DNA of 48,727 nt from Chitinophagales bacterium (GTDB lineage: Bacteria > Bacteroidota > Bacteroidia > Chitinophagales > Saprospiraceae): assembly GCA_038249605.1 (NCBI GenBank), contig JBBSDH010000001.1:1-48727 (forward strand), given 5' to 3'. This document shows positions 10,936-40,886 of this stretch, in pieces. The stretch's first letter is position 1. Every line of letters starts with the position of its first letter. The translations under genes and the position numbers were made by a program. A model generated the notes under the pieces. It saw only the letters and a list, made by a program, of their open reading frames with translations. It was not told the DNA's origin and searched no databases.

Positions 10936-11517
10936 TTACCGAACCAATATTCCAACTCTGTCCCACCGCAGGATCAACCGCGATACGACGCTTCCAATGA
11001 GCATACCCAATACGGCGCCCGCCATTACATCCAAAGGGTAATGCGCGCCTACATACACCTGTGAAAATGCGATCAATGCCGCCCATCCAATAACGGCTGG
11101 CCGGATCCAACGCGCCATTGCGCCGAACAAGCCGATGACGTAAAATGCCGCGGCAAAATGGTTGGTTGCGTGCGAAGATGTAAAACTGTAACCTCCCCCG
11201 CAAGGCACCCTTTCCACCACCACCGCTTCGAGGGCGGGTTCGTTGCAGGGCCGCAGCCGCTGAACGTTTTTCTTGATGATCGAACTGCTTGTGAAATCGG
11301 CGATCCCTACGGCAAGTACCAAACCCAGGACCACCAGCCAGCCACGCTTTCCAAAATTCAAAACCGTAAAAGCAACAAGGAAAACATAAGCCGGCGCCCA
11401 GAACCAACGTTCGCGGCACCAGGGCAACACTGCGTCAAACAAGGCATTGCTCATCCCGGCATTCACGGCCTGGAATACGGCGGTATCCCAACCATTGAGG
11501 ACCGTCCACCAACTCAT
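10936..11517 (-). CDS. PAP2-family phosphatase (membrane)
   Basis: The acid-phosphatase motifs are KKNVQRLRP, SFTSSHA and YVGAHYPLDV. Multiple TM segments are present. Confidence 0.85.
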   Translation of the reverse strand: MSWWTVLNGWDTAVFQAVNAGMSNALFDAVLPWCRERWFWAPAYVFLVAFTVLNFGKRGWLVVLGLVLAVGIADFTSSSIIKKNVQRLRPCNEPALEAVVVERVPCGGGYSFTSSHATNHFAAAFYVIGLFGAMARWIRPAVIGWAALIAFSQVYVGAHYPLDVMAGAVLGMLIGSVVSRLILRWDRVGILVR

Positions 11518-13424: not shown

Positions 13425-14756
13425 TTACTCTTCAACATCTTCAAAAACAACCCCGAAGTTCTGCAATTCCGCCATCACTGGTTCGTATACTTCCGGCATG
13501 ATGGGGATGTTGACGCCTGTGGGCGAAATTTTTCCCTGCAACAGGAGATTGACGAAGATGCCGAGTGGGAGTCCCACCAGTTTCGACATGGCGGTATGTT
13601 CGGCGTCGTCGCCTTTCATGACCAGCGTGGAGGTGAGTTTTTTCTTTTTACGTCCAATTTCGTATTCAAATACATGTTGCATGATGACCATATCGCGGTC
13701 TTTGGGTTGGAGGGCCCATTTTTCAAGCAACATGTTTTCGAGGATCAGCGATGGTGTGGCGTTGTTGATTTTGATTCGTTTTTTGCTAAAAAGTCCGAGC
13801 CACTCCAGTTTTTGCATGATTTCGCTACCGGGTTCGGTTTCGACCAGTTTCGCGATGCGGTCTTTCACCGAGCCGGTGTGCTGGCTGATGCCGAGGAAGG
13901 CTTCCATAAGGTCGTGGTACGTGAGCTTGTCGGAATCGACGATGGGGAAAGTAGCATCGGTGAGGCCGATGCGCACCAGGGCATTCCAGGCGTCGCAGAA
14001 ACCGAGGTGGCGTATGGTGCCGCGCAGGAGGGTTTTGATGTCCTGCAAACCATAGGCATCGCGGTACATCATGGAATCGCGGTTGGCGTACATTTCCCAT
14101 TTCCCCAAACCTGGAATATCGATGATGCGGTATTGGCGGAAGATGCGGCGGTAGGGGATGTATTTCAGTTTGCCGTCTTCGAGGAATTGTGCGGTACCCT
14201 GGCCAGCGAGCACCACGTTTCGAGGGTTCCAGGAGAATTTGTAGTGCCAGGGATTGTCGTCGCTTTCCGGGGCCACAAGTCCGCCCGTGTACGAGTAAAA
14301 GGCGGTGATTTTGCCGCCTTTGTTTCGGATGCCGTTGATGCGTTGCATGGCGCTCATGTGGTCGATGCCGGGGTCGAGGCCCAATTCGTTCATAAACACA
14401 AGCGCGCGTTGCCGGGCTTCATCGCCGAGGCGGAACACCTGTTTGGAGACGTAGCTTGCGGTCACCATGTGTTTTCCGAGCACGATGCAGTCCTGGGCAA
14501 CTTCCAGGTGCATTTGTGGAGGAAGCAGGGAAACCACTACATCGTGGCGTTGGATGACGTCATGGCGGTCGCTGGGTTTGGAGGCGTCGAGCCAGATGGC
14601 GCGGCCGTTGGGGTGGTTGTTTACCTTGCGTTGTGCCAGTTCGATGCTGGCGTTTGCTACGGTAATGAAAAAGTTGTGCTTTTTGCCCTGATCCAGGATG
14701 TAATTGATGAGGGCGGTTGCCGAGCGTCCGGCGCCTATGATGAGCAGATTTTTCAT
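13425..14756 (-). CDS. Saccharopine dehydrogenase family protein (NAD(P)-binding)
   Basis: At 443 aa, it has an N-terminal Rossmann motif MKNLLIIGAGRSATAL and family-like length and blocks (LPPQMH, GLDPGIDHM). Confidence 0.85.
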   Translation of the reverse strand: MKNLLIIGAGRSATALINYILDQGKKHNFFITVANASIELAQRKVNNHPNGRAIWLDASKPSDRHDVIQRHDVVVSLLPPQMHLEVAQDCIVLGKHMVTASYVSKQVFRLGDEARQRALVFMNELGLDPGIDHMSAMQRINGIRNKGGKITAFYSYTGGLVAPESDDNPWHYKFSWNPRNVVLAGQGTAQFLEDGKLKYIPYRRIFRQYRIIDIPGLGKWEMYANRDSMMYRDAYGLQDIKTLLRGTIRHLGFCDAWNALVRIGLTDATFPIVDSDKLTYHDLMEAFLGISQHTGSVKDRIAKLVETEPGSEIMQKLEWLGLFSKKRIKINNATPSLILENMLLEKWALQPKDRDMVIMQHVFEYEIGRKKKKLTSTLVMKGDDAEHTAMSKLVGLPLGIFVNLLLQGKISPTGVNIPIMPEVYEPVMAELQNFGVVFEDVEE

Positions 14757-14994
14757 ACAGGGTAAGTGTTGTCTGGACGTAAAGTTAGGGCCGGGAAGTC
14801 AATAATTCAACGTGGCTATGATTTTTCGGAGGGTTGTGTGGGGCCAAAGTGACGTGTAGCTGACATAACAGCAATGAAACCAAAGGGTAAAAGCTCCAAA
14901 CATCTCTGTTGGTAATTCACATTTATATGGTTATTTTTAAATTTATTTTATTGTATAAAAGCAATTTACAAATTTATAATAAAATATATATTTA

Positions 14995-15055
14995 TCCACA
15001 ACAGGGTAAAAATGTAATTCTGTAGGAGGTTGCGAAGCAGCACATTTGTAACATG
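14995..15055 (+). promoter_or_regulatory. 61-nt upstream module, copy A (CACAACAGG..TGTAATT..GCACATTTGTAACAT)
   Basis: It is 41/61 identical without gaps to 15529-15589. The ACATTTG element resembles the -7 box TAnnTTTG. Confidence 0.4.
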
Positions 15056-15103
15056 AAAAAACACACATGTCCGGCCTAAAGAGGTTGGAGTCGTGTTTTG
15101 GAC

Positions 15104-15117
15104 ATGTTCATGGGATT
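15104..15117 (+). repeat. 14-nt motif copy 1 (ATGTTCATGGGATT)
   Basis: One of four same-strand copies in the ORF-free gap. A 9-bp hairpin at 15147-15167 follows, with a weak TTT tail. Confidence 0.8.
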
Positions 15118-15181
15118 TACTTCCAGACGCAAAGAAAAGCCCGGGGAGCCGCTTAGAGTAAGCGGCTTTCCGCTTGCGCCT

Positions 15182-15211
15182 AAAAAAAAAGGTCGACCGA
15201 GATGGTCGACC
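15182..15211 (-). terminator. Minus-strand intrinsic terminator with no annotated gene to terminate
   Basis: GGTCGACC (15191-15198) pairs with GGTCGACC (15204-15211). The hairpin is followed on the minus strand by T9 (15190-15182). Confidence 0.5.
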
Positions 15212-15230
15212 CCCATTTCCTTACCGGAGA

Positions 15231-15244
15231 ATGTGCATGGGATT
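15231..15244 (+). repeat. 14-nt motif copy 2 (ATGTGCATGGGATT)
   Basis: It has one substitution relative to copies 1 and 4. It lies 20 nt right of the minus-strand terminator. Confidence 0.8.
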
Positions 15245-15371
15245 ACAACGGGCTAATGCCATAAGAGTGGATTAAAGTTATGGCTAATTTCAGGCTACTG
15301 GTCTATTGTATGGCCCAAAAGTAGGATACAATTCCCGATGCTACAAACATCCGGGATAAAAAAATTGAATA

Positions 15372-15385
15372 ATGTTCATGGGTTT
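15372..15385 (+). repeat. 14-nt motif copy 3 (ATGTTCATGGGTTT)
   Basis: It is followed after 10 nt by the terminator at 15396-15432. Confidence 0.8.
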
Positions 15386-15395
15386 TTACCCTTTT

Positions 15396-15432
15396 AGAAA
15401 GCCGCAACTACCGCGACGCGGCTTTCTTTTTT
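15396..15432 (+). terminator. Rho-independent terminator
   Basis: AGAAAGCCGC (15396-15405) pairs with GCGGCTTTCT (15418-15427), followed by a T-run to 15432. Confidence 0.8.
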
Positions 15433-15528
15433 ATTAAAGGCGCCTCCGCTGGTTCACAAAGTAACCTTTAAAACCACGCTAAAAACCAAACATTCAAATC
15501 TTTACGTATTTGATGTTGCAAAAAAGTC

Positions 15529-15589
15529 TTCACAACAGGCAAATTTTGTAATTGTGGAGTCTGTAACCTTGTTGCACCTTTGTAACATC
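15529..15589 (+). promoter_or_regulatory. 61-nt upstream module, copy B (CACAACAGG..TGTAATT..GCACCTTTGTAACAT)
   Basis: Paralogue of 14995-15055 (41/61 ungapped). Confidence 0.4.
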
Positions 15590-15736
15590 AAACTTTAACA
15601 TTTTTCACTCATTAAATTTGCAGTGTCCATGTGTAAGCCTGTTACAATTAAGATTCAGAACGGTACCATCCGTGTTGCCAACGCGCACTAATCGCCCCCA
15701 AAAAACAGCTTACTCCAATAAGACCTACTTTCGAAA

Positions 15737-15750
15737 ATGTTCATGGGATT
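15737..15750 (+). repeat. 14-nt motif copy 4 (ATGTTCATGGGATT)
   Basis: It is followed after 10 nt by the terminator at 15761-15797. Confidence 0.8.
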
Positions 15751-15760
15751 ATAATGTTGA

Positions 15761-15797
15761 AGAAGTCCTGCCAAATGTGGCAGGACTTCTTTTTTTG
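15761..15797 (+). terminator. Strong rho-independent terminator
   Basis: A 13-bp perfect stem AGAAGTCCTGCCA (15761-15773) / TGGCAGGACTTCT (15778-15790) with a 4-nt loop is followed by T7. Confidence 0.9.
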
Positions 15798-15826
15798 TGC
15801 CCAACGCTTTTGTGACGGTCACAGCG

Positions 15827-15834
15827 TACTTTTG
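15827..15834 (+). promoter_or_regulatory. -7 promoter box TACTTTTG
   Basis: Exact match 92 nt upstream of ATG 15926. Confidence 0.45.
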
Positions 15835-15925
15835 CGATCAGGATTAAACCGATTTGCAAGATTTTCAGGATTGATCCGGTTTTAAATCACAAGCCACGAC
15901 TTTTACAGGACACCTACTGCACCTG

Positions 15926-17026
15926 ATGAATAAAATACTGCTAACACTGTCGCTTTTTCTGTTTCTGGCTTCGTCTGTCGTTGCCCAAGAGTCGGACACC
16001 ACCATTTACAATGTGGCTGAAACCATGCCTTACCCGCTTTTCAACCGCTGTAAGGACCAAAAAAGTGACAATGAACGATGGAACGAAGATTCGTTGCGGC
16101 GTTGCAACGAAAACTACCTGTTGAGCATCCTGGCTCAAAACATCCGCTACCCCGAAGCGGCGCGGCAAAAAAACATTGAAGGCACGGTGGTTGCCAGTTT
16201 TGTGGTTGAAAAAAACGGCAAAATGAGCAACCTGAAAATCATCAAAGACATCGGTGAAGGTTGCGGCGACGAAGCCCTACGCGTTTTAAAAGCGCTCGAC
16301 GAACTGGGACTGAAATGGCAACCGGCCACACTCGAAGACAAAACAGTGCGCATGCGCCACGCCCTGCCCCTGCGTTTCCGGCTCGAAGAACCCATTCCTT
16401 TTTACGTTTCTGATTCCGGCGATTCCATATACACCATACTCGACACCGAAGCGAACTTTGACGGAGGCGTCGATTCGTTGTACCGTTTCATTCTTACCAG
16501 ACTGGAATACCCTACGGCCATGCTCGACAGCTGCAAAACTGGCGTGATCGAAATGGCCCTGATGATAGGCGGCAACGGATCGGTGGACATGGTGAACCAG
16601 ATCGATTTCAACAACCTGGGCTACGATTTCCAGTGGAAAGCCCTGCAACTCGCCAACCGCACCAACGGCATGTGGATACCCGCCGTTTACCAGGAAAAAC
16701 CGGTTACGAGCACCATACCCCTGCGTGTTTTGTTCAAATCGAACAAACCGGCCTGCAAAGCCGCCAACGAACGTTTCGACCAGGCCATGATCCTGAGCAA
16801 CGACGGCGCCCTGCAACTGGAAAGTGAAAAACCCGAGGAAGCCATCGCCAAGTTCACCGAGGCCCTGGCTTTGTCGCCCAACAACACCGAACTGCTCTAC
16901 TACCGCGGCTCGGCTTATTTGCAACTGAACCGACGCGACGAAGCGTGTGCGGATTACAACAAGATCAAGGAGTTGCTTGGGATTACGTGGTTTGAGAGTA
17001 TTAGGAAGGTGGTTTGTGGGTGGTGA
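15926..17026 (+). CDS. TonB C-terminal-domain protein with a C-terminal TPR region (secreted/periplasmic)
   Basis: A signal peptide is present. The TonB_C-like block is YPEAARQKNIEGTVVASFVVEKNGKMSNLKIIKDIGEGCGDEALRVLK, and a second degenerate copy follows. The TPR-like tail is EEAIAKFTEALALSPNNTELLYYRGSAYLQL. Confidence 0.65.
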   Translation: MNKILLTLSLFLFLASSVVAQESDTTIYNVAETMPYPLFNRCKDQKSDNERWNEDSLRRCNENYLLSILAQNIRYPEAARQKNIEGTVVASFVVEKNGKMSNLKIIKDIGEGCGDEALRVLKALDELGLKWQPATLEDKTVRMRHALPLRFRLEEPIPFYVSDSGDSIYTILDTEANFDGGVDSLYRFILTRLEYPTAMLDSCKTGVIEMALMIGGNGSVDMVNQIDFNNLGYDFQWKALQLANRTNGMWIPAVYQEKPVTSTIPLRVLFKSNKPACKAANERFDQAMILSNDGALQLESEKPEEAIAKFTEALALSPNNTELLYYRGSAYLQLNRRDEACADYNKIKELLGITWFESIRKVVCGW

Positions 17027-17222: not shown

Positions 17223-17915
17223 ATGAAGGACAAGGCGCTTCCGAAAAAAATTCTCATCGTCGACGACGAACCGGACATACTGGAGTTCCTCCAGTACAAC
17301 CTTCGCAAGGAAGGCTATACGGTGGTAACCGCCAGCGATGGTAAATTTGCCCTCGAAGTTGCCGAACGCGAAAAACCCAACCTCATCATCCTCGACATCA
17401 TGATGCCCGAGCTTGATGGCGTTGAAACCTGCCGCCAACTGCGCAGCAAAAAAGAGTTCGCCGACACGCCCATCGCTTTCCTGACCGCCCGCGACGAAGA
17501 CTTTTCCCAAATCACTGCCCTGGATGTAGGCGGCGACGACTACATCACCAAACCCATCAAACCCCGCGTACTCATTTCCCGCATCAATGCCCTGCTCCGC
17601 CGCGCCAACCGCGCCAACGCCGATGACCAGGACATCATCCAACTCTCCGACCTCGTTATCGACCGCCAAAAAGTGCTGGTTTTTAAACAGGAGAGACCCA
17701 TCGAATTGCCGCGCAAAGAATTTGAAATCCTGTGGCTGCTTGCCTCCAAACCCGGCCGCGTGTTTACCCGTGAAGAAATTTTTGATAAAATTTGGGGCGC
17801 CGATGTCATCGTCGGTAACCGAACCATCGACGTGCACATCCGTAAACTGCGCGAACGCCTGGGTGAGGAATACATCAAAACGATGAAGGGAATTGGGTAC
17901 AAATTCGAGTTCTAG
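17223..17915 (+). CDS. OmpR/PhoB-family response regulator
   Basis: The receiver domain shows ILIVDDEPDI, LIILDIMMPELDG and KP. The C-terminal winged-helix region shows LPRKEFEILWLL and GIGYKF. Confidence 0.9.
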   Translation: MKDKALPKKILIVDDEPDILEFLQYNLRKEGYTVVTASDGKFALEVAEREKPNLIILDIMMPELDGVETCRQLRSKKEFADTPIAFLTARDEDFSQITALDVGGDDYITKPIKPRVLISRINALLRRANRANADDQDIIQLSDLVIDRQKVLVFKQERPIELPRKEFEILWLLASKPGRVFTREEIFDKIWGADVIVGNRTIDVHIRKLRERLGEEYIKTMKGIGYKFEF

Positions 17916-18965
17916 ATGTTTAAAAATCAGACGCCACAGCAGCTCGCCTTTTACATTGCACTCATAACCTCTTTCGGGCTTAGTTTCATCTTTGCCATTC
18001 TGAAACTTACCGGCATACTTTCCAACCCCTGGTGGGAAGTCGCCCTCATCGGCATCGTGGCTTTCGTCGCCAATTTCATTGCCAATTATTACCTGGTGCG
18101 CTACTACATCTTCCGGCGCATCAAACTTATTTACAAAATCATCCACCGTCACAAACTGCCCGCCGATTTCAAAGCGGGTAAAATCCCGATGAACCAAAAC
18201 ATCCTCGACGATGTGGAACGCGAAGTGGGCAAATGGGCCGAACAACACAACCGCGACCTCGAACAACTCGAACGCCTCGCTACTTACCGCCGCCGTTTCA
18301 TCGGCGATGTGTCGCACGAACTCAAAACGCCCATTTTCAACATCCAGGGTTTTGTACATACCCTGCTTGACGGCGCCATCAACGACCCGGATGTCAACAT
18401 CAAATACCTCAACCGCGCCGCCAAAAACGTGGACCGCCTCCAGGCCATCGTCGAAGACCTGGAAACCATCAACAAACTCGAATCGGGTCAAATGGTGCTT
18501 GACCTGCGCGAGTTCGACGTATATGACCTGGCTCAGGACGTGTATTCTGATCTCGAAATACGCGCCAAAGAACGCAACATCCGCCTAACCTTTAAAGAAG
18601 GCGCCGACCAGCACTTCCGCGTTCGGGCCGACAAGGAAAGCGTCCGCCAGGTGCTCATCAACCTGATACACAATTCCATCAAATACGGCAAAGAAGGCGG
18701 CGTGACCAAACTCAGTTTCTACGACATGGAAAGTTACATGCTCGTGGAAGTGAGCGACAATGGCATCGGCATCGATTCCGAACACCTCAGACACGTGTTC
18801 GACCGCTTCTTTCGCGTGGATAAAAGCCGCTCCCGCGACGCAGGAGGTACAGGCCTGGGGCTGTCCATCGTAAAACACATCATCGAAGCGCACAAACAAA
18901 CGGTGACAGTGCGCAGCACGTCGGGACAAGGTGCGACGTTCGGGTTTACGCTGGAAAAAGCGTGA
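17916..18965 (+). CDS. Sensor histidine kinase (HisKA + HATPase_c)
   Basis: The ATG is directly adjacent to the regulator's TAG stop. Two N-terminal TM helices are present. The H-box is FIGDVSHELKTP, the N-box is LINLIHNSIKY, and the G-boxes are DNGIGI and GTGLGLSIVK. Confidence 0.9.
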   Translation: MFKNQTPQQLAFYIALITSFGLSFIFAILKLTGILSNPWWEVALIGIVAFVANFIANYYLVRYYIFRRIKLIYKIIHRHKLPADFKAGKIPMNQNILDDVEREVGKWAEQHNRDLEQLERLATYRRRFIGDVSHELKTPIFNIQGFVHTLLDGAINDPDVNIKYLNRAAKNVDRLQAIVEDLETINKLESGQMVLDLREFDVYDLAQDVYSDLEIRAKERNIRLTFKEGADQHFRVRADKESVRQVLINLIHNSIKYGKEGGVTKLSFYDMESYMLVEVSDNGIGIDSEHLRHVFDRFFRVDKSRSRDAGGTGLGLSIVKHIIEAHKQTVTVRSTSGQGATFGFTLEKA

Positions 18966-26280: not shown

Positions 26281-26286
26281 AAACGC

Positions 26287-27009
26287 ATGAACATAGGATT
26301 GCTTGGCTACGGTAAAATGGGCCGCGCCATCGAAGAAGTTGCCGCAGGCAGCGAGGTGCATTTCGTGTGGCGCATCGGCCGCGACAACAACCATGAGCTC
26401 ACCACGGAATTGTTGCAACAAGCCGACGTGGTCATCGAATTCAGCAGGCCCGAAGCCGCTTTGCAAAATGTAAAAATGTGCCTCGAAGCTGGAATTCCGG
26501 TGGTAAGTGGCACCACTGGATGGCTGGAACAACTTCCCGAAGCGCAAGCCATTTGTTTGGAAAAAAAAGGCGCCTTGCTTTGGGCATCCAATTTCAGCGT
26601 GGGTGTAAACCTGTTTTTTGCCCTCAACCGCTACCTCGCCGAACTCATGAACGGCAGGCCCGAATACGACATCCGTGTTCAGGAAATACACCACATCCAC
26701 AAGCTCGACGCACCAAGCGGCACCGCCCTCACGCTCACCCTCGACACCATCAAAATGCTCGGCCGCAAAACGGACTGGAAACTCGTCCCTGATCCATACG
26801 GCCCAGCCGACATTCCTGTGGAAGCCATCCGCGAAGGCGAAGTGCCTGGCACCCACGTCATCACCTACGAAAGTTCGGTGGACAGCATCCGCATCGAACA
26901 CAAAGCCAACTCGCGCAAAGGTTTTGCCGAGGGCGCACTTTTGGCTGCACAATGGATTTATGGGAAAAAAGGGGTTTTTGATATGATGGATGTGCTGGGG
27001 ATCAAGTGA
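26287..27009 (+). CDS. dapB: 4-hydroxy-tetrahydrodipicolinate reductase
   Basis: MNIGLLGYGKMGRAI, the DapB signature E.HH..K.DAPSGTA (EIHHIHKLDAPSGTAL) and NSRKGFAEGAL are present. Confidence 0.9.
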   Translation: MNIGLLGYGKMGRAIEEVAAGSEVHFVWRIGRDNNHELTTELLQQADVVIEFSRPEAALQNVKMCLEAGIPVVSGTTGWLEQLPEAQAICLEKKGALLWASNFSVGVNLFFALNRYLAELMNGRPEYDIRVQEIHHIHKLDAPSGTALTLTLDTIKMLGRKTDWKLVPDPYGPADIPVEAIREGEVPGTHVITYESSVDSIRIEHKANSRKGFAEGALLAAQWIYGKKGVFDMMDVLGIK

Positions 27010-40768: not shown

Positions 40769-40886
40769 TTATGAAACCGGTTAATCCCATGCAATGATGA
40801 TTCCATGAACTGCAAAATCACCCTGTACAGTTTGCCGTTTTTGGCGACCGTTGAAGTGGCGGTGATGGAGCTTCAGTAATAAATCC

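Follow-up and report, generated by a model that had tools for sequence, protein, structure and literature searches.

Predicted seed RNAs and an opposite-strand anti-seed RNA gene form a conserved cluster in an intergenic gap of Saprospiraceae

Post-transcriptional control in Bacteroidota is poorly understood. To our knowledge Hfq, ProQ and CsrA do not occur in the phylum, Shine-Dalgarno pairing is for the most part missing, and FopS and GibS, limited to gut Bacteroidaceae, are its only well-studied trans-acting small RNAs (sRNAs). FopS and GibS are multicopy sRNAs of 65-70 nt that combine an unpaired conserved 5' seed with a terminator; their targets are susC-type mRNAs, over whose start codons they pair, and RbpB acts as their antagonist (PMC11697453; PMC7366714). 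The present analysis concerns a 48,727-nt stretch of DNA from a Chitinophagales bacterium of the Saprospiraceae (contig JBBSDH010000001.1), called the window below, in which the intergenic gap at 14757-15925 (1169 nt) holds four exact copies of the 14-mer ATGTKCATGGGWTT, all on the plus strand, at 15104, 15231, 15372 and 15737. The reading preferred here, to which a probability of roughly 0.6 is assigned, is that the gap is a conserved regulatory-RNA locus comprising seed RNAs, an opposite-strand anti-seed RNA, pairing in trans and a micro-ORF. It is grounded in sequence conservation, predicted promoters and terminators, terminator covariation, complementarity and a coding signature. All transcripts, RNA ends, promoters and terminators described in this work are predictions made from the sequence.

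The first-pass annotation of the gap had drawn attention to the four same-strand copies, and the enrichment was confirmed: with up to two mismatches allowed the window contains 7 matches against 2.1 expected, and none of 100 shuffles reached 7. The copies do lie on one strand of the DNA, but the description seems not to extend to expression, as copy 2 is apparently read from the other strand (see below). The terminators noticed 3' of copies 3 and 4 are present, with stems of 10 and 15 bp each followed by a T-run, and so is the hairpin that follows copy 1 (15142-15172). The suggestion that the 14-mer acts like a single-stranded seed is supported by its unpaired state in predicted folds, and the start-codon-like AUG in its complement gains weight from FopS/GibS, the closest known family, which works that way. 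A cluster of paralogous small-RNA genes, as had been proposed, is supported. The units of about 120 and 215 nt envisaged there are probably not the main products, since the -7 box found in the family at -11 to -4 relative to the motif predicts RNAs of about 59 nt starting at the motif.

Unit D, around copy 4 (15726-15797, plus strand), is the canonical family member and lies in the 3' region of the predicted micro-ORF transcript. It consists of a -7-like box TACTTTCG at 15726-15733 (-11 to -4), the seed at 15737-15750 (in extended form ATGTTCATGGGATTATAAT) and, 8-10 nt from the motif, a terminator with a 15-bp stem at 15759-15792 and a T-run to 15797. The fold has a z score of -5.8 with the seed unpaired, and the unit matches the family profile described below at 25.6 bits (E 4e-7, in the window). 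The terminator is kept in 10 genomes with compensatory double changes in 6 of its 12 pairs; in relatives units of this type stand 3' of a short ORF and 5' of a covarying terminator, and near-identical copies occur in metagenome loci L205 and L214.

Unit A, around copy 1 (15096-15180, plus strand), is a seed RNA with the conserved block TTTTGGACATGTTCATGGGATT, the 14-mer at 15104-15117 and a long nested hairpin at 15128-15180. It scores 16.9 bits against the family profile (E 2e-4, in the window) and has orthologues in L004, L006, L007, L008, L014 and L049. The alignment fold leaves the seed unpaired between two helical domains, with compensatory changes in 15 of 37 pairs; the conserved TTTTGGAC is present, but the hairpin is non-canonical. 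In an alignment of ten orthologous gaps, type A reads as the module TTCACAAC..TTGTTATT..N20..GCACTTTTGTAyCAT, about 45 nt, TTTTGGATATGTTCATGGGATTTCAAC and then the long hairpin. Unit C, around copy 3 (15372-15433, plus strand), is a short seed RNA whose 14-mer (15372-15385, variant GGGTTT) is separated by 10 nt from a terminator with a 10-bp stem (15396-15427) and T6, the T-run ending at 15433. It folds with a z score of -4.4, the 5' end unpaired and the terminator formed. Unit C occurs in the species of the window alone (L205, L214) and is missing in the other relatives, its -7 box is weak and its profile score of 8.0 bits (E 0.15) is sub-significant. Units A, C and D all carry the invariant core of the family; D and A match the profile significantly and C weakly.

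The wider family was collected by a metagenome scan with the 24-base pattern ATGTTCATGGGATTWYAA-N15-45-TTTTTT, which returned at least 120 stretches from marine, mat, soil and freshwater assemblies of 31-57 % GC. The metagenome loci bear no taxon labels, and they were placed in Bacteroidota because T9SS type A sorting domains, typical of that phylum, are found in proteins encoded nearby, even where the GC content of the loci differs widely. The consensus is a TAnnTTTG-like box, GGAT, ATGTTCATGGGATTATAATTTG, about 9 nt, a GC hairpin and a U-run. Among the matches listed, positions that the pattern does not force are conserved as well: G at -4 in 76 %, G at -3 in 77 %, A at -2 in 94 % and T at -1 in 84 %, together with the TTTG after the stop/ATTATAA. 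A 32-nt profile (GGAT-ATGTTCATGGGATTATAATTTG) built from 111 unique metagenome copies gave, among the matches listed, 224 hits in 127 loci, with two copies in 68 loci, three in 11, and four and five in one locus each, so that 81 of the 127 loci have 2-5 copies.

Of 194 unique copies, 25 % have an octamer at -11 to -4 that agrees with TAnnTTTG at 5 or more of its 6 defined positions, and 9 % have one that agrees at all of them, against a background of 1 % and 0.04 %, respectively. The signal peaks sharply at this one offset, and the start is therefore predicted at or next to the A of ATG. The predicted RNA, from this start to the end of the U-run, has a median length of 59 nt, and the spacer to the terminator helix has a median of 9 nt (interquartile range 7-11.5), which turns the distance of about 10 nt first noticed in the window into a family property. 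The 14-mer is fully unpaired in 72 % of the minimum-energy folds. Of the window's units, D shows this layout, the terminator being 8 nt from the 14-mer and the box at -11 to -4; C has the terminator, at 10 nt, and a weak box, and A has the conserved TTTTGGAC and a non-canonical hairpin.

Di-haem cytochrome c peroxidase is encoded beside 23 of the family loci, and it is, with DUF4249, PanB and a protein of the deacetylase family, the neighbour met most often. The neighbours follow no susC rule, and a general linkage to helix-turn-helix (HTH), rpoE or dcas12f genes was not seen. At the gathering score Rfam gave nothing in the window or in 110 kb covering 12 family loci, and at E <= 1 nothing in four short loci holding six canonical copies; FopS and BTnc201 matches from permissive searches were discarded as sub-threshold. 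The consensus had no BLAST match in the plasmid collection, and in the literature searched the exact seed string occurred in no relevant context, the Flavobacterium and Red Sea metatranscriptome papers containing no description of it. A scan of IMG/VR viral contigs with a 15-base pattern gave 106 single matches, mostly in coding sequence. Full-consensus copies (TGGATATGTTCATGGGATTATAATTTG plus a hairpin) were seen on about eight of these contigs (L146, L102, L151, L097, L168, L114, L104 and L129).

Copy 2 had been counted as a fourth seed copy, but no plus-strand terminator was found after it, and the elements of a transcription unit lie on the minus strand. Unit B (15181-15347, minus strand) is a predicted anti-seed RNA gene with a -33 TTTG at 15347-15344, a -7 box TACTTTTG at 15323-15316 and a predicted start at about 15311, followed by a 5' hairpin at 15284-15258 with a UAAUCC loop, the anti-seed GUUGUAAUCCCAUGCACAU at 15250-15229, which is the complement of the motif, and a terminator at 15214-15188 with U9, ending at 15181. 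The terminator scan gave a call for the minus strand alone (11 pairs and T9); on the plus strand the same hairpin (15188-15214) has A9 before it and CCCCATTTCC after it. From the promoter and the minus-only terminator, together with the missing plus-strand terminator after copy 2, the product of unit B is predicted to run from 15311 to 15181 on the minus strand, an RNA about 130 nt long. Copy 2 is thus most likely transcribed from the minus strand as part of an RNA carrying the seed complement.

The features of unit B are conserved. The block GGCCCAAAAGTA reads on the minus strand as TACTTTTG, a perfect Bacteroidota -7 box, with TTTG 20 nt upstream of it (19 in L008), and both boxes are kept in most relatives. 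In the alignment of 10 genomes the promoter boxes and the terminator are conserved, the latter with compensatory changes in 5 of 9 pairs. Type B was recognized in 9 of the 10 gaps, where it always lies between an A-run with a hairpin and a hairpin of the form GCCATA..GGATTA..TATGGC. The unit carries GUUrUAAUCCCAUGyrCAU, by which it is predicted to pair with the seeds over about 20 bp (-26.9 kcal/mol with the family seed, z -6.2), and a second partial site is present in many relatives. Its match to the family profile is sub-significant (8.2 bits). The strand complementary to the seed thus has a predicted promoter and terminator of its own, as expected of a stand-alone, sponge-like anti-sRNA gene.

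Anti-seed units were also found in distant lineages. In L195, L197/L262, L218, L249, L273, L277, L285 and L291 a (U/A)UAAUCCCAUGAAy unit is followed by its own hairpin and U-run, and in L274/L301 the unit reads UAGUCCCAUGAAC. In all loci listed the anti-seed unit lies on the strand opposite to the seed genes. Seed genes flank it on both sides, those on one side at -100 to -184 and those on the other at +119 to +307, except in L274/L301, where a seed gene is seen on one side only; L273 has an additional overlapping hit at +15. This layout is that of the window, A(+), B(-), C/D(+). A conserved TATCTTCG box stands about 70 nt upstream in several of these units. The duplexes predicted between the consensus seed and the distant anti-seed RNAs have energies between -19 and -31 kcal/mol, with z scores between -2.7 and -8 relative to shuffled sequences, and several units contain a second site, CAAAUUGUAAUCU, at -17 to -22 kcal/mol. 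No consistent downstream gene was found for the anti-seed units of other lineages.

The cluster is preceded by a promoter module that occurs twice in the window. The copy leading unit A (14995-15055, plus strand), conserved upstream of type-A units in relatives, comprises CACAAC at 14997-15002, a -33-like TTC at 15018-15020, a 20-nt spacer and a -7-like CACATTTG at 15041-15048, with the start predicted near 15053. The copy ahead of the micro-ORF and unit D transcript (15529-15589, plus strand) has CACAAC at 15531-15536, a -33 TTG at 15552-15554, a 20-nt spacer and a -7-like CACCTTTG at 15575-15582, so that both consist of a -33-like element, N20 and cAnnTTTG. The duplication reported earlier holds: the two copies are identical at 41 of 61 positions without gaps, and the best of 200 shuffles reached 33. 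The idea that the last block is a -7 box (TTTG) is strengthened by its conservation in relatives and in metagenome clusters, many unrelated loci having CACAA-N8-TTTTTGTCTTTG-N20-(T)GCATATTTGTA-nnGTGA 40-106 nt upstream of the first seed; when the 220 nt upstream of each of 201 seeds were inspected, 51 matches to the module were counted among those listed. On this evidence the 61-nt module is a predicted conserved promoter leading the cluster, and the shared CACAA element with its partial inverted repeat (ACAA..TTGT) suggests a common regulator. In many clusters the TTTGTA of the module is followed by nnGTGAtcGG, which looks like a conserved 5' end of leader transcripts, and then by purine-rich GGAGGAAAG-like sequence. 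A tandem array in L192 (2990-3720, minus strand) has five seed-sRNA genes about 165 nt apart, with 3-4 near-identical terminators, led by a single CACAA..TTTGTA module.

The gap lies between a saccharopine-dehydrogenase-family (SDH) gene (13425-14756, minus strand) and a TonB_C plus TPR gene (15926-17026, plus strand). The closest relatives of the window's SDH protein, from Saprospiraceae metagenome-assembled genomes (MAGs), are 81-85 % identical, and in their gaps the motif lies upstream of the SDH gene in the orientation seen in the window. Alignment of ten gaps, a check proposed with the first-pass annotation, separated distinct unit types that are each conserved individually; the module is retained, and terminators show compensatory changes. 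Types A, B and D are kept in the orthologous gaps although the flanks diverge. The whole arrangement is kept, in syntenic positions, in about 12 related Saprospiraceae genomes, and in about 250 kb of close-relative sequence the motif is essentially confined to this gap. One contig, L006 (JBGAWU010000105.1), is labelled as a Methyloglobulus sp. MAG, a gammaproteobacterium, and has a Saprospiraceae-type SDH gene (83 % identity), the micro-ORF and units A and B; it is probably a binning contaminant.

The resemblance to FopS (RF04319) and GibS of Bacteroides thetaiotaomicron is one of design. Both groups consist of Bacteroidota sRNAs, about 60-70 nt long, in which a conserved unpaired 5' stretch precedes an intrinsic terminator; both have TAnnTTTG-type promoters, and both have CAU in the seed, start-codon pairing being described for FopS/GibS and proposed here. 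The FopS architecture (unpaired 5' stretch and Rho-independent terminator in about 65-70 nt) is found in the predicted folds of units C and D. A phage-borne FopS copy has been reported, and the new family has its copies on about eight viral contigs. The seed partly resembles that of FopS (UUCAUGGnAUUAnAnUUU), at 15 of 18 positions of the Rfam consensus, a match expected by chance because 4,227 families were scanned; it could reflect distant homology or convergence. Membership in FopS finds no support: the Rfam model gave copy 4 only 18 bits (E 3-7.7) against a gathering score of 56, and the family profile had no hit on the FopS consensus. FopS is known from Bacteroidaceae only, scattered over the genome and often beside susC, whereas the new family occurs in Saprospiraceae and diverse environmental Bacteroidota as tandem clusters beside housekeeping genes, with a linked anti-seed RNA gene and a conserved upstream promoter module. 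FopS is multicopy, with 12-15 copies per genome, and the clusters of the new family hold 2-5 copies, counted per locus.

RNAs complementary to the seed of another sRNA are familiar from Proteobacteria as sponges or decoys (SroC-GcvB, chbBC spacer-ChiX, 3'ETS-leuZ-RyhB/RybB), and some of the units described here likewise have such complementarity, at two sites. The known proteobacterial sponges mostly arise by processing of mRNAs or tRNA precursors, and their genes lie apart from those of the sRNAs, whereas the partner found here is a predicted stand-alone gene with its own promoter and terminator, on the opposite strand inside the sRNA cluster and kept across lineages. Clustered multicopy sRNAs such as Qrr1-5, LhrC1-5 and OmrA/B are similar in being tandem paralogues with an identical seed and divergent terminators, but are Hfq-dependent or belong to other phyla, and we know of none with a linked antisense partner gene. 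The hth-associated non-coding RNAs (ncRNAs) of dCas12f-sigmaE loci in Flavobacteriia, found beside hth/rpoE/dcas12f or susCD genes, are also abundant Bacteroidota ncRNAs with a conserved 5' end (PMC13472631). Compared by description only, they are set apart by their neighbours, as no general hth/rpoE/dcas12f or susCD linkage was seen for the new family.

The mechanism proposed for the regulatory-RNA locus is as follows. The seed RNAs would present an invariant (GA)U-AUGUUCAUGGGAUU(AUAAUUUG) unpaired at or near the 5' end, with the intrinsic terminator about 9 nt further on. The first unit of a cluster would be driven by the CACAA promoter module and later units by their own -7 boxes; in the Saprospiraceae clade the module ahead of unit D would also drive the 20-aa gene, with D in the 3' region of that gene and provided with its own -7-like box. 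The seed, with its anti-start-codon CAU, may pair in trans and mask translation-initiation regions of the AAUCCC-AUG-AAC type, as FopS and GibS do in Bacteroides. Such pairing is favoured because the architecture is the same as in FopS/GibS and the CAU of the seed is embedded in sequence that complements AAUCCC-AUG-AAC. Unit B could be a decoy or sponge that titrates the seed RNAs, or else their principal partner. That the units are transcribed, where their RNAs begin and end, that these pair in the cell and which way the regulation runs is what we infer here. A wider proposal is advanced more tentatively and stands a lesser chance: Bacteroidota may possess an ancient self-contained RNA-RNA module, a promoter-led AUGUUCAUGGGAUU array with an embedded opposite-strand anti-sRNA of one or two sites, of which FopS/GibS would be a derived branch, the seed being held invariant by a universal partner (an initiation signal or a global RNA-binding protein).

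Several points weigh against the regulatory-RNA reading. No mRNA target emerged from the searches: across 2.2 Mb of loci, complementarity to the seed was no more frequent at the starts of 2,027 ORFs than at 11,370 internal ATGs. In the window, a duplex-energy target search gave no signal and a sliding scan recovered only the self-antisense sites and unit B; the best candidate there, the dapB start at 26287, ranks 10th of 289 starts and is unexceptional. A good -7 box is present in only a quarter to a third of copies, and cluster-leading units have a leader of 40-150 nt, so that the 5' end of a primary transcript is not in every case formed by the seed. In all Saprospiraceae unit B departs from the perfect complement at one or two fixed positions (CAUGyrCAU vs CAUGAACAU), which is odd for a pure sponge. 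The near-invariance of the 14-mer across the phylum exceeds what pairing with a co-evolving partner needs and may point to a further partner under constraint, be it a protein or a universal RNA. The measured invariance is inflated because the pattern and the profile by which the sample was collected both include the motif. Finally, every RNA end in the cluster is itself a prediction.

The dapB site, AAACGC-ATG-AACAT at 26281-26294, is a one-mismatch complement of the motif at the start of the DapB gene, and DapB and the SDH-family gene are both tied to lysine metabolism. The inverted motif pair reported at 40782-40810 found no support as a family relative, with 5.0 bits (E 1.3) against the profile and no place among the top duplex sites of the window. 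Its halves, TTAATCCCATGCA and ATTCCATGAAC, are both anti-seed-like and on the plus strand, in a convergent gap after a glycoside-hydrolase-like gene, and small ORFs (MNCKITLYS...) also begin there. A reading of TGGATATGTTCATGGGATT as a tRNA 3'-end or primer-binding-site mimic (complementary to CCA, acceptor and T-stem) was dropped by reasoning only, as it implies an AU-rich acceptor stem with U1-A72 and the complementary sites have no T-loop context. Pairing of the motif with the 5' end of 16S rRNA would presumably extend over 6-7 bp only.

It is unlikely, in our estimate, that the RNAs mainly titrate a protein, for instance an RRM-1 protein such as RbpB, with the 14-mer as its recognition site and the anti-seed RNA releasing it. 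Invariance of the 14-mer over lineages of 31-57 % GC suits a fixed protein surface better than a drifting RNA, the family is multicopy, and FopS and GibS bind RbpB via their 5' region (PMC11697453). A second GGGAUU/GGAUUA is also present in the hairpin loop of some A-type and B units: in the cluster-leading A-type units of a low-GC lineage (L225, L228, L241, L244, L256 and L299) the loop repeats the motif core UAGUGGGAUUU, and the hairpin loop of window unit B has GGAUUA/UAAUCC at the equivalent place. This second, structured presentation of the core may be relevant to protein binding. On the other hand, a candidate protein partner was not identified here, and the dedicated anti-seed RNAs form duplexes of about 20 bp, which argues that RNA-RNA pairing is itself under selection. 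Titration and base pairing are not mutually exclusive.

A smaller likelihood was given to the conserved 5' end being a leaderless mini-ORF, AUG-UUC-AUG-GGA-UUA-UAA, whose translation or ribosome occupancy would be the output. The predicted start coincides with the A of ATG, and MFMGL with a stop codon directly after it is encoded in 160 of 200 unique copies, in a sample that is biased to the consensus. The third positions of TTC, GGA and TTA are essentially fixed, however, and invariance of the 14-mer without synonymous-type variation points to a constraint at the nucleotide level. Conservation also extends beyond the stop (TTTG), and the stop is missing, with unrelated extensions, in cluster-leading A-type units across lineages and in window units A and C. 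The alternative coding frame noticed earlier, (N/H)-V-H-G-(I/F), fails on similar grounds, as neither the frame nor its flanks are conserved and none of the three codon positions varies within the 14-mer; it was rejected together with the 29-, 19- and 52-aa ORFs, whose frame and length are not conserved in relatives.

The motif would be rather improbable as a DNA site, be it a transcription-factor operator, a promoter-proximal element or a target of the dCas12f-sigmaE type, with the hairpins as ordinary terminators of unrelated transcripts. Many copies do adjoin a promoter box, both orientations occur (B as against A, C and D), and conserved 5' ends of Bacteroidota ncRNAs overlap dCas12f guide targets (PMC13472631). 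Yet the motif is non-palindromic, in anti-seed units it lies about 70 nt inside the transcript and away from the promoter, and the neighbours show neither general HTH, rpoE or dcas12f linkage nor a susCD rule. The fixed terminator spacing and the unpaired state are features of the RNA level.

That the units are cis-acting leaders or attenuators, D with the micro-ORF controlling the TonB_C/TPR gene and B serving as a terminating leader of the SDH-like gene, is considered very improbable. Between the D terminator and the TonB-like gene downstream there are 129 nt, in L001, L003 and L011 unit B precedes SDH by 135-210 nt and shares its strand, and a peptide followed by a terminator recalls leader-peptide attenuators. 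An alternative antiterminator pairing, however, is not conserved, the micro-ORF is conserved as a peptide and not as a run of regulatory codons, and the same RNA units stand elsewhere beside unrelated genes (cytochrome c peroxidase, PanB, DUF4249 and others), the anti-seed units of other lineages having no consistent gene downstream. Least credible of all is a dispersed repeat or miniature mobile element devoid of RNA function, since in spite of the multicopy motif and the roughly eight full-consensus copies on IMG/VR viral contigs the shared part is only about 26 nt with unrelated flanks, no inverted ends or target duplications were seen, positions are syntenic in about 12 Saprospiraceae genomes and close relatives have the motif essentially in this gap only (about 250 kb).

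Were the regulatory-RNA reading true, seed sRNAs of one design, with a built-in antisense partner and a conserved promoter, would exist in Bacteroidota of marine, freshwater, soil and sludge habitats. They would offer a general model of riboregulation for the phylum and candidate ancestors of FopS, and the invariant 14-nt seed would be a simple handle for target finding in any genome. In current annotation these loci appear as intergenic gaps without content, and they are covered by no Rfam model.

The gap also contains a short gene. The 20-codon ORF MCKPVTIKIQNGTIRVANAH (15629-15691, plus strand) was found in every relative having the locus, as 12 distinct orthologous sequences with conserved start and stop, and judged by codon-position variation it is clearly coding: variable sites fall 8/2/15 on the three codon positions, synonymous and non-synonymous codon differences in codons 4-17 number 364 and 156, and identity is 76 % as against 26-34 % in the flanks. 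Substitutions are thus mainly at third positions, as expected of a small coding ORF. Of the three micro-ORFs singled out earlier this one is conserved and coding, and the other two are not conserved. The earlier statement that the gap holds no credible ORF of at least 60 aa stands in that none is conserved; a single mechanical one exists, a 65-aa TTG ORF at 15618-15815 that runs through the terminator and is not conserved. The micro-ORF had no match in Pfam or NCBIfam and was not found outside this Saprospiraceae clade. The alternating pattern V-T-I-K-I-K / N-G / T-V-R-V may point to a β-hairpin. This gene for a 20-aa peptide is a new small-protein candidate in its own right.

Downstream of the TonB-like gene an OmpR-type response regulator and a histidine kinase are encoded (17223-18965). 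This pair is syntenic in L001, L008 and L011, and the block SDH / RNA cluster / TonB-like gene / two-component system is therefore regarded as conserved in the clade. Between the terminator of unit D and the TonB_C/TPR gene, at 15838-15882, lies a pair of direct repeats, TCAGGATT(A/G)A(A/T)CCG(A/G)TTT, 27 nt apart, which could be an operator for that gene.

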